From the NCBI GenBank assembly GCA_965200965.1, contig OZ241744.1:2432001-2496000 (forward strand): DNA of 64,000 bases. The letters run 5' to 3'. Under the pieces are notes generated by a model. That model was not told the origin of the DNA. It made no database searches and worked only from the letters and a program-made list of their open reading frames with translations. Origin of the DNA: an uncultured Candidatus Binatia bacterium. GTDB taxonomy: Bacteria > Desulfobacterota > Binatia > Bin18. Position numbers and translations under genes: made by a program. Positions 7,619 to 63,323 of the stretch are shown here, in pieces; position 1 is the first letter of the stretch, and every line of letters starts with the position of its first letter.

Positions 7619-7670
7619 AAAGATGCCTCGTCTTGTCTTCCTCTCGAGTCGGTTAAGACGACGCCTCTTT
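7619..7670 (+). repeat. Palindromic MITE/RPE-like element, subfamily A (degenerate), in the 5' region of tldD
   Basis: Arms aaagatgcctcgtctt / aagacgacgcctcttt (14/16 complementary); core cgtcttgtcttcctctcgagtcggttaagacg matches the copies at 45245 and 58762. Confidence 0.85.
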
Positions 7671-44306: not shown

Positions 44307-44380
44307 CTGGGGAGGCAGGACTCGAACCTGCGAATACCGGGGCCAAAACCCGGTGCCTTACCTGGCTTGGCTACTCCCCA
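44307..44380 (-). tRNA. tRNA-Gln(TTG)
   Basis: tggggag/ctcccca acceptor stem, ccggg-ttTTGgc-cccgg anticodon arm, GGTTCGAGTCC; typical ispE-tRNA-Gln-prs position. Confidence 0.95.
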
Positions 44381-44468: not shown

Positions 44469-45428
44469 TCAAACCGAGCGACCATCCTGTGGGTCACTGC
44501 GCGGCTCCTCAGCCAGGCATTCAACCACGAACACCTGGCCCTGGTGAGCCACGGTTCTGGCAAGGCTGTCCGCCGCGCGGTGGGCGGCCGCCCGGTGGCC
44601 GAACAGCCCGAAGACGGTCGACCCACTCCCGGACATCAGCGCCACCTCGGCCCGGGCAGCCAGGAGCCTGTTTTTGAGGTCTTGAAGGAGGGGATGGGCT
44701 GGAAGGACGGCCCGCTCAAGATCGTTGACACAAGCGGCCGGCGACGGCCAGCCATCTGCCAAGACAGCGATCGTTGGAGACGGGCCGTCAGCGGTCGCCC
44801 CGAGCATCTGGTCAAAACGCCGATAGGCCCACGCTGTGGAGACGCCAAAAGCCGGAACGATCAGGACCAGCCAGCGCTTCCCGGCCAACCTGACCGGCCT
44901 CAACTCCTCGCCGATCCCCGTCACCCGGGCCGGCCGACACGGAATGAAAAACGGCACATCCGCACCCAAACGCAGCCCCAGTTCGCACAGTCGCTGCTCG
45001 GTCCAGCCAAGCCGCAGCAGGATGTTGAGCCCTTTCAGGACCGCCGCGGCATCGCTGCTTCCACCGCCCAAGCCAGCCCCGACCGGAATGCGTTTTCTCA
45101 GACGGAGCGAGAGACGGGCGGCGAGCCCGGCTTCCTGACACAGCAGCAAGGCGGCGCGATAGGCCAGATTGGTCTCGTCGCTCGGAAGACATGGAGTATC
45201 GCAACTCAGGCGAATCTGTGCCGGGCGGGCGGCTGAGACCATAAAAGGTGTATCGTCTTGCCTTCCTCTCGACCGGATAAGACGCTTCACCTTATCGTCC
45301 AGCCGTATCCGAATCTCGTCGCACAGGCTGACCGGCAGCATGAGAGAATTGAGCCGGTGATACCCGTCTTCCCGCCGGCCCACAATATGCAAAAACAGGT
45401 TGACTTTGGCTGGAGCAAGAACCCGCAT
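44469..45428 (-). CDS. ispE: 4-diphosphocytidyl-2-C-methyl-D-erythritol kinase
   Basis: APAKVNLFLHI, KRIPVGAGLGGGSSDAA, LGADVPFF, MSGSGSTVF. Confidence 0.95.
   Translation of the reverse strand: MRVLAPAKVNLFLHIVGRREDGYHRLNSLMLPVSLCDEIRIRLDDKVKRLIRSRGRQDDTPFMVSAARPAQIRLSCDTPCLPSDETNLAYRAALLLCQEAGLAARLSLRLRKRIPVGAGLGGGSSDAAAVLKGLNILLRLGWTEQRLCELGLRLGADVPFFIPCRPARVTGIGEELRPVRLAGKRWLVLIVPAFGVSTAWAYRRFDQMLGATADGPSPTIAVLADGWPSPAACVNDLERAVLPAHPLLQDLKNRLLAARAEVALMSGSGSTVFGLFGHRAAAHRAADSLARTVAHQGQVFVVECLAEEPRSDPQDGRSV
45245..45293 (+). repeat. Palindromic element, subfamily A, inserted in frame in ispE
   Basis: aaggtgtatcgtcttgccttcctctcgaccggataagacgcttcacctt; 43/49 identical to the reverse complement of 58762-58810. 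Confidence 0.9.
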
Positions 45429-58750: not shown

Positions 58751-58761
58751 TGCTGCCTCAG

Positions 58762-58810
58762 AAGGTGCATCATCTTATCCGGTTGAGAGGAAGGCAAGAC
58801 GATTCGCCTT
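58762..58810 (-). repeat. Palindromic element, subfamily A, in the 5' UTR of the phosphotransferase gene
   Basis: aaggtgcatcatcttatccggttgagaggaaggcaagacgattcgcctt; its reverse complement matches the ispE copy. Confidence 0.9.
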
Positions 58811-58832
58811 GGTGAAACGTGTGTATGCCCAC

Positions 58833-58954: not shown

Positions 58955-61099
58955 CTAGAACCGATAAGTATAACGGACCTTGATCCGCCCCTCCCGCGAG
59001 GTCGGGGAGATAGCGCCGTCACGAACCAGCCACTTGTGGTGATAGACCACAAACAGCTCGTTGCCCGGCTCAATAATCCAGCGCAGCCGGGTGTGCAGCC
59101 CCAGGCTGTCCGATACGGTGTCGTACTGGCCAAAGGCGAACCAGGAGAGATCGGGGTTGAGGGCCAGGTTAAGCCGGGCGCGGACGAGGCGCACCGCAAA
59201 GTTGCCCCACGGCAGGCGGACATCGTTGTGTTGATACTCGCCGCTGAAAAAGACAGCCGGCCCAGGCCGGAAGGTCAGCCGCCCGATCCAGTCATCCCGC
59301 CGGCCGCTGAAAAAATGTCCCCATTCGTAACGCGCCAGGATTCCCAGCTTGCGTTTGTCGGCGCTCTCAAACTCAATCCGCTGGCGTCGGAAGACATACG
59401 CCCCGGGCGGGATCGTCACCCCGTCGCTGATGGCAAATGCGCTGCGCAGGCGCTCAAAGGTCTGGATGGTGCGAAAGCGCAGCACATCCCCGCTCTCGAA
59501 CCGCCAGGCACACGGCATGTTAACATTCCGGGTCAGCAGCTGCCGGGTAGCCGGGTCGGCAAAATAATTGCCGTCAAAGGCACAGCTCACCTGGCGGGTC
59601 TGCCACAGCTCGGGACGCGGGGCGTACTGGAGAAACCAGCCAAAGCGACGGATGCCGTTACGCGGCACAAAGCCCATCGTAGCCTCAAAATCGTCCTGGA
59701 CCTCACGGTAGGTGCCAAAGATGCGCCAAGTATCGTTGGGCAGGCTGATCTGACTGCCCCAGGCCAGATTCCTGGCCGTCCCAGGCACAAAACTTCTCAG
59801 TACAAAGGACGAGAACTCCAGGTTCTTATTGCCGGCCAACTCCGAGGTGCTGTAACGAAAGTCTCCGCCGGCCAACCCGGTCGCCGGCCCCCGTTCGGGC
59901 GTACGGCGGGTGGCAATAAACCCGACCGAAGATTTGGTCAGGATGTTGCGTTTGACCCGGACGATGCTGAAGTTCTCGCCCGGCAGGTGGCCGCGGTTCT
60001 GGGTCTGGACGCTCATCAGGCCGATCCGATACGGTCCGGTCCGGCCGCTGAGCTTGCCGCCGCCGACCACATCAACCGTTTTCCCGTCGTCGGACAGACC
60101 GATGCGCCGGCTGAAAAACGGAATAATGACCAGCGGGCCGGAGGTCGGGGTCAGCCCATCGACCGCAAAATTGCCGGCGTCTTCCAGGAAGAACTGGCGT
60201 TTTTCGGGGAAAAAGAGCGAAAAACGGGTCAGATTGACCTGGGCGTTGTCCACCTCGGTTTCGCCGAAGTCGGTATTCAGGCTCAGGCTGAGGGTCAGGC
60301 TTGGTGTGAGCTTGTAGAAGATGTCCACCGCCGGCTGAACGTTGGTGGCCTTGCGTCTGGGGATCAGCGACCAGGACGGCACGATGTCAACCCCCAGCCC
60401 TTGCGACAGGCCGCTGAGGCCGGTCAGACTGCCGGCTTCCGACACCCGGAAAAAGTCGAGGTTCTGCCGATAGCCGGCCCACACGGCCTCCTCGTTGCGC
60501 CGCTTGATGATCCGCTGGACGTTGAAACCCCAGGTTGACTGGGCGGGGTTGAAGCTCAGGGTGTGGAACGGAATTGACACTTCAGCGGTCCAGCCGTGCG
60601 CGGTGATGCGGGTCCGGGCCTGCCAGATGCCGTTCCAGTCCGGGTTGCGGTCCTGGCCCTCGTCCGAGATGATCTGGTCAAAACGCGCCCCGGCCGCGTT
60701 GACCTGAAAGACAAAGGCACCCCGCCGGTCGTGAAAGGTATCGAGCAGCAGGCTCACCCGGTCATCAGCGCCGAGCTCGGCGTCCCGGTCAAACCGGGTG
60801 GCGACAATGGCCTGCGGCTCAGCGTCCGTGCAGTTCACACCGATGTACAGATGGGTCGGAGAATACACGACCCGCACCTCGGTCGGCTCGGACGCCGGCC
60901 GGCCTTCGTCCGGTTCGCGCTGGCGCAGCGTGTCTATGGCCGGGGCGTGCTGCCAGACCGCTTCGTCAAGGATGCCGTCAACCCGTATCGGCTCGGTCGT
61001 GGGCAGTGCGGCCAGGGAGGGGCGGGCCGCGGCCGCCGGCGCGGCACACAGGCCGCTCAGCGCCAGCCAGCAGCCCAGCAGCCTAAAAGCGACAGGTAT
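58955..61099 (-). CDS. CBM9-like/DUF5916-type outer-membrane-associated protein, copy 2 (start uncertain, possibly ATA)
   Basis: IRVDGILDEAVW, LDTFHDRR, NTDFGETEVD..VNLTRFSLFFPEKRQFFLE, FFSRRIG; ends YTYRF. Confidence 0.8.
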   Translation of the reverse strand: MPVAFRLLGCWLALSGLCAAPAAAARPSLAALPTTEPIRVDGILDEAVWQHAPAIDTLRQREPDEGRPASEPTEVRVVYSPTHLYIGVNCTDAEPQAIVATRFDRDAELGADDRVSLLLDTFHDRRGAFVFQVNAAGARFDQIISDEGQDRNPDWNGIWQARTRITAHGWTAEVSIPFHTLSFNPAQSTWGFNVQRIIKRRNEEAVWAGYRQNLDFFRVSEAGSLTGLSGLSQGLGVDIVPSWSLIPRRKATNVQPAVDIFYKLTPSLTLSLSLNTDFGETEVDNAQVNLTRFSLFFPEKRQFFLEDAGNFAVDGLTPTSGPLVIIPFFSRRIGLSDDGKTVDVVGGGKLSGRTGPYRIGLMSVQTQNRGHLPGENFSIVRVKRNILTKSSVGFIATRRTPERGPATGLAGGDFRYSTSELAGNKNLEFSSFVLRSFVPGTARNLAWGSQISLPNDTWRIFGTYREVQDDFEATMGFVPRNGIRRFGWFLQYAPRPELWQTRQVSCAFDGNYFADPATRQLLTRNVNMPCAWRFESGDVLRFRTIQTFERLRSAFAISDGVTIPPGAYVFRRQRIEFESADKRKLGILARYEWGHFFSGRRDDWIGRLTFRPGPAVFFSGEYQHNDVRLPWGNFAVRLVRARLNLALNPDLSWFAFGQYDTVSDSLGLHTRLRWIIEPGNELFVVYHHKWLVRDGAISPTSREGRIKVRYTYRF

Positions 61100-63233
61100 A
61101 GCGGACCTTGATCCGGCCCTCGCGCTGGGCGGCCCGGAATCTGCCGGGCGGGGTGTGCCAGTGGTGATTGTAGACGATGAAGAAGTCATTGCCAGGCTCG
61201 ATGATCCAGCGCAGTTGGCTGTTGAGGTTGAGCATATCTGAGACGGTGTCGTACTGCACCAGGCCGAACCACGACAGCTCAGGGCCGGCCGCCAGGCTGA
61301 GCCGGCCGCGGACCAGCCGGACGACAAAGTTCCCCTCGGCCAGGCGGACATCATTTTGCTGGTACTCGGCGCTGAAGAAGACAGCCGGGCCGGGCCGCAG
61401 CTCCAGCCGTCCGGTCCAGTCGTCCCGTTTGCCACTGTAGAACTTGCCCCATTCATAGCGCAGGTACAGTCCTACCGGACGCTTATCGGCGCTCTGCAAC
61501 TCGGTCCGATAGCGGCGGTAGCGGTAGCTGCCGGGCGCGATCGTCACCCCGTCGCTGATCTCGAAACCTTCGGTCAGGCGTTGAAACGCCTCAAAGGTGA
61601 AGGCCCTGAGCTCGTCTCCGCTGTTGAAGCGCCACCAGCAGGGGAAGCCGATAAAGCGGGTCAGCAGGCGGTTGGTCGGCGGGTCGGCGTAATAGCTGCC
61701 GCCCGAGGCGCATGAGACCTGGCGGGTGGCCCAGCGGCCCGGGCGCGGTGCGCCGCGCACAAACCAACGAAAACGGCGGATGCCGTTGCGCGGCACAAAG
61801 CCCAGCGTGGCGTCAAAATCTTCCTGCACCTCGTGGTATGAGGTTGCGACCTCCCAGGTGTCGTTGGGCATGTTGAGGGCCGTGCCCCAGGCCATATCCC
61901 TGGTCGCTCCAGGAATAAAACTCTTCAGAAAAAACGCCGACCACGACAGGTTCTTCTTCCCCCTCAACTCAGATGTACTATACCGGAAGTTGCCCCCGGC
62001 CAAGCCGCTGGCCGGCCCGCGTTCGGGCGTGCGGCGGGTGGCGATGAAGCCGACTGAGGACTTGGTGAACAGGTCGCGTTTGACGCGGATGACGCTGAAA
62101 TTCTCGCCCGGCACAGGCTCTCGCTGTTGGGCTTGCACGCTCATGAGGCCCAGCCGATAGGGGCCGGTCCGACCGCTCAGCTTGACGCCGCCGAGCAGGT
62201 CTACCGGCTTGTCGTCGGCGTCAAGGCCGATCCGCCGGCTGAAAAAGGGGACGAGGGCCAGGGGCCGGGACGTGCCGGTCAGGTCGTCCACCGCAAAATT
62301 GCCGGCGTCCTCCAGGAAGAACTGGCGCTTCTCGGGAAAAAACAGCGAGAAGCGGGTCAGATTGATCTGCGAGTCGTCAACCACGGTTTCGCCAAAGTCG
62401 GTGTTCAGGGTGACGCTCAGGGTCAGCCCTGGGGTGAGTTTGTAGAAGGCGTTCAGCCCCGGCTGGAAGTTGGTCGCCCGGCGTCTGGGAACGGCCGACA
62501 CAAACGTCGACACGTCCAGACCCAGCCCTTGGTTGATGCCGATCAGGCCGGTCAACAGGCCGGCCTCCGACACCCGGAAGAAGGTGAGGTTCTGCCGATA
62601 GCCGGCCCACACCGCTTCTTCGTTATTGCGCTTGATCACCCGCTGGACGTTAAACCCCCAGACGCTCTGCCCGGAGGCAAAGCTGAGTGTCTGAAAGGGA
62701 ATCAACACCTCCGCATTCCAGCCCTGGGCGGTCAACCGGGTCCTGGCATACCAGATGCCATTCCAGTCCGGGTTCAGGTCCTGGCCTTCATCAGAGATAA
62801 TCTGGTCAAAGCGGGCACCGACCGCGTTGACCTGAAAGACAAAGGCGTTGCGCCGGTCGTGAAAGGTATCGAGCAACAGGCTCACCCGGTCGTCAGCGTC
62901 GAGCTTGGCGTCACGGTCAAAGCGCGAGGCCACAATCGCCTCCGGGTTTGTGTCAAAGCAGGTAATGCCGATGTACAGCCGACGGGGCGAGTACAGGACG
63001 CGCACCTCGGTCCGCTCAGACGCCGGCGCACCCTCGTCCGGCTCGCGCTGGCGCAGCGTGTCTACGGTCTGGGCCGACTGCCAGGCCGCCTCGCTCAAGA
63101 CGCCGTCAACCGTGATGATCGCGGTTGTTGGAACCGCGGCCAGCTCGGGCGTCCCTGCCTGCACCGGAGAGCCGCACAGGCACGCCATCAACACCAGACT
63201 GAGGAAAAAATGGGATGTGACGGCACACTGCAT
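61083..63233 (-). CDS. CBM9-like/DUF5916-type protein, copy 1 (start may be 63281)
   Basis: Signal peptide; same motifs as copy 2; ends YTCRF. Confidence 0.85.
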   Translation of the reverse strand: MQCAVTSHFFLSLVLMACLCGSPVQAGTPELAAVPTTAIITVDGVLSEAAWQSAQTVDTLRQREPDEGAPASERTEVRVLYSPRRLYIGITCFDTNPEAIVASRFDRDAKLDADDRVSLLLDTFHDRRNAFVFQVNAVGARFDQIISDEGQDLNPDWNGIWYARTRLTAQGWNAEVLIPFQTLSFASGQSVWGFNVQRVIKRNNEEAVWAGYRQNLTFFRVSEAGLLTGLIGINQGLGLDVSTFVSAVPRRRATNFQPGLNAFYKLTPGLTLSVTLNTDFGETVVDDSQINLTRFSLFFPEKRQFFLEDAGNFAVDDLTGTSRPLALVPFFSRRIGLDADDKPVDLLGGVKLSGRTGPYRLGLMSVQAQQREPVPGENFSVIRVKRDLFTKSSVGFIATRRTPERGPASGLAGGNFRYSTSELRGKKNLSWSAFFLKSFIPGATRDMAWGTALNMPNDTWEVATSYHEVQEDFDATLGFVPRNGIRRFRWFVRGAPRPGRWATRQVSCASGGSYYADPPTNRLLTRFIGFPCWWRFNSGDELRAFTFEAFQRLTEGFEISDGVTIAPGSYRYRRYRTELQSADKRPVGLYLRYEWGKFYSGKRDDWTGRLELRPGPAVFFSAEYQQNDVRLAEGNFVVRLVRGRLSLAAGPELSWFGLVQYDTVSDMLNLNSQLRWIIEPGNDFFIVYNHHWHTPPGRFRAAQREGRIKVRYTCRF

Positions 63234-63323
63234 GAGGAAAGTATCGCGCCCCACTTTTGCGGACCGGGGTTCGTTCCTCACTCAGCCCGCCGGCCGGATG
63301 CTGCAAGCGAGCGAAGGGGAAGA

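Follow-up and report, generated by a model that had tools for sequence, protein, structure and literature searches.

The window analyzed here, 64,000 nucleotides of an uncultured Candidatus Binatia bacterium (contig OZ241744.1, positions 2,432,001 to 2,496,000; the genome is designated G000), contains an ispE gene with a hairpin-forming insert, two intergenic copies of the same repeat family and a neighboring tRNA gene:

44469–45428, minus strand: ispE, the single-copy gene for a 319-aa CDP-ME kinase; its reading frame stays open across the insertion.
45244–45294, unstranded: 51-bp hairpin insert in ispE, with 16-bp arms and a 19-nt asymmetric head; residues 46–62; site empty in G001 and G003–G007.
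45244–45259, plus strand: left arm in the family orientation, 13 of 16 positions pairing with the right arm.
45279–45294, plus strand: right arm.
58761–58811, unstranded: second family copy, in opposite orientation, intergenic; missing from the matching G007 site.
7619–7670, unstranded: third family copy, 52 bp, intergenic; common to G007, an older insertion.
44307–44380, minus strand: tRNA gene between ispE and prs (RF00005, 64 bits); context, not part of the element.

Close to the second copy, positions 58955–63281 hold two tandem paralogous minus-strand genes, 2128 bp apart and with 71–80% DNA identity.

The ispE product scored above the TIGR00154 equivalog cut-off (202.5 vs. 138.7 bits), has the GHMP fold and retains all of the IspE motif residues, K8, N10, H24, N87, the GAGLGGGSSD loop and D157, which we take to be the catalytic residues. 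Across 13 aligned orthologs these were invariant, with the exception of the nearly invariant G117. A search of the genome with IspE returned only the query itself, and the protein is the sole GHMP kinase in G000. A first-pass annotation, made from the letters of the window, had noted a palindromic repeat translated in frame within this gene, and the reading held: 49 nt at 45245–45293 fold into a hairpin (z −2.9 on the plus and −3.8 on the minus strand) and the frame stays open across it. The added length, given there as 17 to 20 residues, proved to be at the lower bound, as the inserted unit is exactly 51 bp or 17 codons long (45244–45294 in the family register, with 45243–45293 an equivalent placement owing to a repeated base) and encodes KVKRLIRSRGRQDDTPF on the minus strand, while the MVSAARPAQ immediately after it is native loop common to the relatives.

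The same annotation expected orthologs to show a gap, and they did. We found IspE in 28 of the 31 genomes searched and aligned 21 loci; the 17 residues after LDD correspond to an exact gap in G001, G003, G004, G005, G006 and G007 (77–87% identity), none of which keeps the loop length and sequence of G000. In G007 the gap at the DNA level is 51 bp, without duplication. At this site more distant orthologs have loops of varying length, and in G002 the loop carries an unrelated extension; the site was therefore already permissive. Both junctions of the insert were present in contigs of runs X1 (possibly the source sample), X2, X5, X11 and X12, representing four studies, and no contig skipped the element, so that an assembly artefact does not account for it. 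Run X5, labelled as a sponge metagenome, contains long near-identical pieces.

An AlphaFold2 model of the protein from 13 sequences reached a mean pLDDT of 87.3 and a pTM of 0.87, and its top structural matches were all IspE (Foldseek E 1.6e-24; for 4emd, Z 36.7 and rmsd 2.0 A over 288 aligned residues). The core is predicted to be intact with the insert, which is modeled with a pLDDT of about 60 as a loop with a short helix, situated between strands 24–43 and 71–76. The surface loop proposed in the annotation agrees with this topology, from which exposure of the insert would follow.

The hairpin is not a lone palindrome but a member of a repeat family. Using iterated nhmmer searches (E up to 0.05), we found 113 non-overlapping copies in G000, 111 of them under 0.001 and three within the window, and none in a reversed-genome control. 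The hairpin fit called 88 of the 113 copies 51 bp long, the modal length, and the shared architecture consists of two 16-bp arms, whose ends read RARG...CYTY, and a head of 19 nt in which one strand is rich in pyrimidines. Stem positions 6–8, 10 and 14 are variable yet paired, with mutual information of 0.63–0.95 bits; a control with slid partners gave mostly lower values, up to 0.76 bits. Among the 1440 stem cells of 96 copies, G.T and A.C mismatches were about equally common (74 vs. 65), which fits a structure at the DNA level. Partial internal deletions were common. Every copy in G000 differs from all others, and the activity of the family may thus have stopped. The insertion in ispE had been called recent, which holds in the sense that it postdates the split from G007 (dS about 0.2); the ispE copy differs from the nearest other copy at 5 of 51 bases.

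Matches to the core pattern numbered 77 in G000, 22 in G007 and zero in the other 29 genomes searched, and G007 was the sole match in a scan of GTDB. Scans of viral contigs, metagenome contigs and plasmids gave no family match with exact patterns, which miss diverged relatives. A sister type with arms AAAGGGAATCGTGAT is found in G001, G003, G005 and G006 (33–43 arm matches each, compared with a single arm match in G004); 25 of the 38 distinct copies seen are 51 bp. Sister copies received no significant score from the G000 HMM, and the probable kinship of the two types is argued from their length, ends, arm motif, head polarity and intermediate copies.

The copies appear to insert cleanly. Many empty sites in G007 are exact 51-bp gaps, none of 88 copies showed a 4- or 5-bp target duplication, and flank matches of 1 to 3 bp were near chance (2 bp in 9/88 and 3 bp in 5/88). 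Around the insertion point, C at −4 or G at +4 occurred in 102 of 172 flanks (86 intact copies), compared with 53.7 ± 5.9 in codon-phase-matched controls, none of 2000 reaching the observed count; for C at −1 or G at +1 the count was 73 of 172, reached by 3 of 2000 controls. The bias at ±4 was weaker in G007 (29/64), and sister copies had C^G in 22 of 27 on each side, several of these copies being orthologous. The preferred target is thus a loose palindrome, C-NNN^NNN-G, and its symmetry about the insertion point together with the lack of duplication suggests a blunt cut by a symmetric enzyme. Counted with distal positions as anchors, substitutions were somewhat raised beside the junctions (10/32 at −2 and 8/32 at −1).

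Spread was local. Copies less than 20 kb apart differed at 12.9 bases, compared with 16.7 (0/5000 permutations), and 35 of 95 spacings were under 5 kb where 11.5 were expected. In G007, three copies are nested at the same head position, with the inner copy in both orientations. The ispE gene itself was hit three times, in G000 after residue 45, in G007 by 75 bp near residue 213 and in G006 by a 51-bp sister copy near residue 296. Lying at other sites of the gene, the G007 and G006 insertions are, as judged from the alignments, independent of that in G000; the G007 insert is a nested copy carrying a 27-bp deletion, and in the model the two sites fall into other loops, at 211–216 (low confidence) and after helix 279–292. 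Six element matches, three of them nested, cluster around the G007 gene (L045:1828-7450; G007:C1 about 880–887 kb), including a 102-bp nested copy immediately upstream of it.

Our own gene caller assigned 54 of the 113 copies to ORF interiors and 41 to intergenic sequence, with another 18 spanning the end of an ORF. For the comparison with G007, we fetched about 2.0 of its 3.6 Mb; the first 20 loci were syntenic at roughly 90% identity. In tblastn searches, the 54 ORF copies corresponded to 28 empty, 6 shared, 2 partial and 8 one-sided sites and 10 sites without a match, of which one empty and two shared rows were discarded as paralog matches (26–32% identity). In an independent count made from the G007 side, at 52 clean sites with a near-zero gap, 36 insertions lie in G007 genes, 27 reading through and 9 bearing a stop, and 16 are intergenic, about twice the 16% expected from coding density. 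Of the nine stop-bearing insertions, six are in the last 10 codons and one is at codon 4; for another the strand calls conflict, and the ninth is apparently internal. The frame was open in 27 of 28 internal insertions, whereas 32 intergenic copies listed by hand had 125 open frames out of 192 (p about 1e-4, or 5e-4 if 27/29, values that are optimistic as the copies are related); with so many intergenic frames closed, the internal pattern is unlikely to arise by chance. The reciprocal set of 27 G007 rows contained 12 read-through insertions (two of them one 105-bp double insertion), 11 intergenic ones and 4 in the last 8 codons. From frame selection and the structure model, we infer that the inserts are probably translated.

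By their G007 orthologs, the host genes include MurJ, ThrS, DnaX (named by its N-terminal model), MurF, ProS, DacB and, below curated cut-offs, a CCA-adding enzyme and an AddA-like helicase; thrS, murF, proS and the CCA enzyme gene are single-copy. Copies in coding sequence were seen in either orientation and in each of the three phases, and the peptides that they encode are unrelated, as are the proteins that carry them. ProS was hit twice, by an older 54-bp copy common to G000 and G007 and missing from the six other genomes of the genus, and by 18 codons elsewhere in G001. With dN/dS values of 0.10 for thrS, 0.21 for murJ, 0.22 for murF and 0.23 for dnaX, the general claim of tolerated insertions is better carried by thrS, murF and murJ than by ispE. 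A type I-E Cas3 (G000:C1:2840128-2842941, L173) holds three in-frame copies, and restriction-modification genes also bear copies. As for the defense systems themselves, G000 has five long CRISPR arrays (about 21–224 repeats) and eight Cas1 matches; at G000:C1:679254-683974 (L170), a broken divergent cas1 adjoins a 351-aa ORF with a Cas12f1-like TNB match, possibly a decayed type V locus, with an 817-aa ORF without Pfam match on the opposite strand.

We searched for an enzyme that could mobilize the family. Neither G000 nor G007 had a match to PF01797 (Y1/RAYT), PF02371 (IS110), PF01609 (DDE_Tnp_1), PF13359 (DDE_Tnp_4), PF04754 (Rpn/Transposase_31) or PF12784 (PDDEXK_2), the six families searched; self-BLAST of G000 revealed no multi-copy IS among the matches listed. 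Dozens of IS copies are present in G005 and G006. The only two tyrosine recombinase genes (PF00589) are conserved across five genomes, and with a RYYYAAC or GTTRRRY core in 0 of 96 copies, integron attC sites were rejected as an identity of the repeat. Several other candidates were also set aside. The single reverse transcriptase gene of G000 (G000:C1:2405102-2406298, L171) is interrupted by an internal TAG, its G007 match being an open frame of 428 aa, and the CRISPR repeats are unlike the element by eye. Lone arms 0.4–2.4 kb apart in G001, G003, G005 and G006, considered as the ends of an autonomous element, were neighboring or decayed short copies, and no long element with family ends was found among those followed up in the sister clade; no recurring type of neighbor gene was seen beside intergenic copies. 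A RAYT of G006 (L139:1430-2100, with a homolog in G001, L141) is flanked by GTAG-type REPs unrelated to the 51-bp family and had no tblastn match in G000 better than E 0.4. G006 also carries an IS5-type element (L200:1015-1890) of 876 bp in about 44 copies, for which the duplicated target is the TA of CTAG; between its inverted repeat and the inner arm of one G000 subfamily 11 nt are shared, possibly by chance, and no homolog of the element was found in G000 or the fetched part of G007.

In-frame palindromes have precedent. The Rickettsia palindromic elements (RPEs) are 105–146 bp long and fused in frame, with target duplication listed as "?", and a guanylate kinase bearing one is translated and active (PMC2229807); a 2024 review describes their level of coding insertion as unusually high (PMC10969869). 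In-frame repeats have been published for Neisseria, enterobacteria and an archaeon (PMC2229807), and protein-coding palindromes outside Rickettsia include the Wolbachia palindromic elements and the Methanocaldococcus repeat (Ogata 2005; Suyama 2005, as cited in PMC2229807 and PMC3733652). The suggestion that ispE exemplifies RPE-style creation of protein sequence outside Rickettsiales therefore stands as to behavior but not as to novelty. The family resembles RPEs in its dispersed hairpins, in frame in conserved, unrelated genes and encoding no transposase, and differs from them in its modal length of 51 bp, its host, a Binatia genus, and the insertion anatomy, with empty sites defining a blunt insertion with palindromic target bias. 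Searches of NCBIfam and Rfam gave no match to RPE families, and the Wolbachia and Methanocaldococcus elements, from other lineages, are likened by description.

Intragenic REPs are known from Opitutus terrae, Thauera and Xanthomonas (PMC3733652), and REPINs cluster and insert into or beside existing copies (PMC3116915). Our family shares with them the small palindromes, some inside ORFs, and the clustering and insertion into existing copies, but terminal GTAG or CGTC occurred in 1 of 96 copies, PF01797 had no match in G000 or G007, the copies are single units rather than doublets and about half of them lie in ORFs. Some bacterial MITEs are fused in frame (PMC2229807), and their sizes range from 70 to 300 bp (PMC3733652). 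Like Correia/NEMIS, ERIC, RUP and YPAL, the family is non-coding and multi-copy with terminal inverted repeats; unlike these, it lacks a target duplication (TA on both flanks in 0/96), is shorter and has arms that covary rather than match a fixed IS end, with no matching IS found among the six families searched. Elhai et al. in 2008 reportedly described the cyanobacterial small dispersed repeats SDR1, 4 and 5 as elements of 21–27 nt, SDR5 being tied to HIP1, that are said to keep their structure despite sequence change, to be nested, to be present or absent within homologous coding regions and to have an unknown mobilizer. By that description, these would share with our family a very small size, conserved structure, nesting and presence/absence in coding regions, and the 51-bp length and the loose C-NNN^NNN-G target would set the family apart. 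We found no published description of the 51-bp family in the largely open-access literature searched. The family is RPE-like in behavior and differs in insertion anatomy.

Taken together, the annotation's proposal of a lineage-specific, in-frame insertion of a dispersed palindromic element into a loop was supported. We estimate a probability of about 0.8 that one copy of a dispersed hairpin was cleanly inserted into ispE after the split from the sister species and is likely translated as a loop addition of 17 residues predicted to be tolerated. The element would be non-autonomous and moved by an enzyme supplied in trans, which would recognize the folded hairpin or cruciform by its shape plus a few fixed bases, cut the target bluntly and symmetrically and paste the element near its donor; this enzyme may since have been lost or may belong to a family outside those searched. 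Copies in genes would survive where they land in permissive loops, helped by a length of 17 codons and by about two thirds of the frames being open, while selection would purge others, and persistence would require no benefit to the host. Much more tentatively, the pattern may represent an undescribed form of DNA movement, in which the shape of a 51-bp hairpin is recognized by an enzyme outside all families searched, which then cuts a palindromic target bluntly and pastes the copy nearby without a scar, the codon-multiple length being an adaptation to genes.

Movement by a dedicated enzyme has a competitor in host processes, for example the capture of an excised single-stranded hairpin at a fork or double-strand break, and although the lack of matches to six transposase families in G000 and G007, a local spread that suits fork-linked events and the common partial internal deletions would all fit, we consider such an origin, with arm-to-arm copying maintaining the stem pairing, unlikely: the precise ends and the modal 51 bp in two divergent subfamilies (88/113 and 25/38), junctions with neither microhomology nor duplication, the symmetric target bias and the bases that are fixed within the otherwise covarying stem all point to a specific enzyme. 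It is very improbable that the peptide or hairpin was retained for a host benefit, through regulation or a new binding surface, given the copies in both orientations and all phases with unrelated peptides, their excess between genes and a strain variant that changes a residue inside the ispE insert; the retention of the older proS copy in two species is what such a benefit would predict. We regard as the least probable reading one in which the hairpin is excised from the transcript or passed over during translation, leaving a protein without the insert. The translational bypass elements (byps) of Magnusiomyces mitochondria behave in this way; they have matching take-off and landing codons, and their frame and stops are irrelevant. 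The stability and size of our hairpin would suit such skipping, under which frame and stops would not matter, but nearly all internal copies lack stops and have net lengths divisible by three, other net lengths in G007 fall between genes or at gene ends, and the junctions have no duplicated codon (a 3-bp duplication in only 5/88), so that the family does not fit a bypass element of this kind.

Distinctly unlikely, too, is that ispE is becoming dispensable in this lineage and the insertion persists through weak selection rather than in a permissive loop, even if the selection data lend this reading some weight. Between G000 and G007 the dN/dS of ispE was 0.44 (median 0.20 and 95th percentile 0.40 of 251 genes), compared with 0.14 for ispD and 0.16 for ispF, which like dxr were located via short motifs only; each species has 13 derived amino-acid changes, among strain variants distinct amino-acid changes outnumber silent ones by 10 to about 5, and three separate insertions have hit the gene across three species. 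Furthermore, dxs (PF13292) was not found in G000, a 99% complete genome in which six other MEP genes were located, and an HMG-CoA-reductase-like gene is present (G000:C1:830333-831601, L169; 5/5 genomes of the genus searched). On the other hand, 44 replacement against 35 silent differences still amount to purifying selection, dN/dS to G004, G003 and G006 was 0.19–0.22, like the 0.20 between two outgroups, and no stops or frameshifts were found in ispE of the strain contigs. No mevalonate kinase was found in G000, IspE being the only GHMP kinase, ispG and ispH are present, and the same element sits in thrS under much stronger constraint (dN/dS 0.10). The gene looks functional under loosened constraint; the annotation's "normally essential enzyme" is consistent with the sole GHMP kinase, whereas the raised dN/dS, the missing dxs and the HMG-CoA-reductase-like gene leave essentiality here unproven. 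In the same pathway, the IspH match (G000:C1:1856866-1857897) has 344 codons for 262 model positions, about 80 extra residues.

How protein-coding palindromes move has been an open question since the RPEs were described, and the reviews consulted give no mechanism (PMC2229807). The genus studied here provides pairs of closely related genomes in which dozens of sites can be compared in the filled and the empty state, and it places three constraints on a mechanism, namely the lack of a duplication, the symmetry of the target and the local spread. The blunt palindromic target, the local spread, the repeated hits on ispE and the missing mobilizer make the old question testable. The copies also amount to a natural collection of 17-residue insertions that core enzymes tolerate, in which the drug target IspE is represented by three different loops. 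Protein engineering could benefit from an inserter that leaves no scar and keeps the frame, were its enzyme found. Should the tentative proposal of an undescribed movement be true, the family would be a natural scarless 17-residue insertion scanner, mapping permissive loops in tRNA synthetases, DnaX, MurF, MurJ and, in three independent events, IspE, and the codon-multiple length kept in two diverged subfamilies would be the element's own adaptation to life inside genes.
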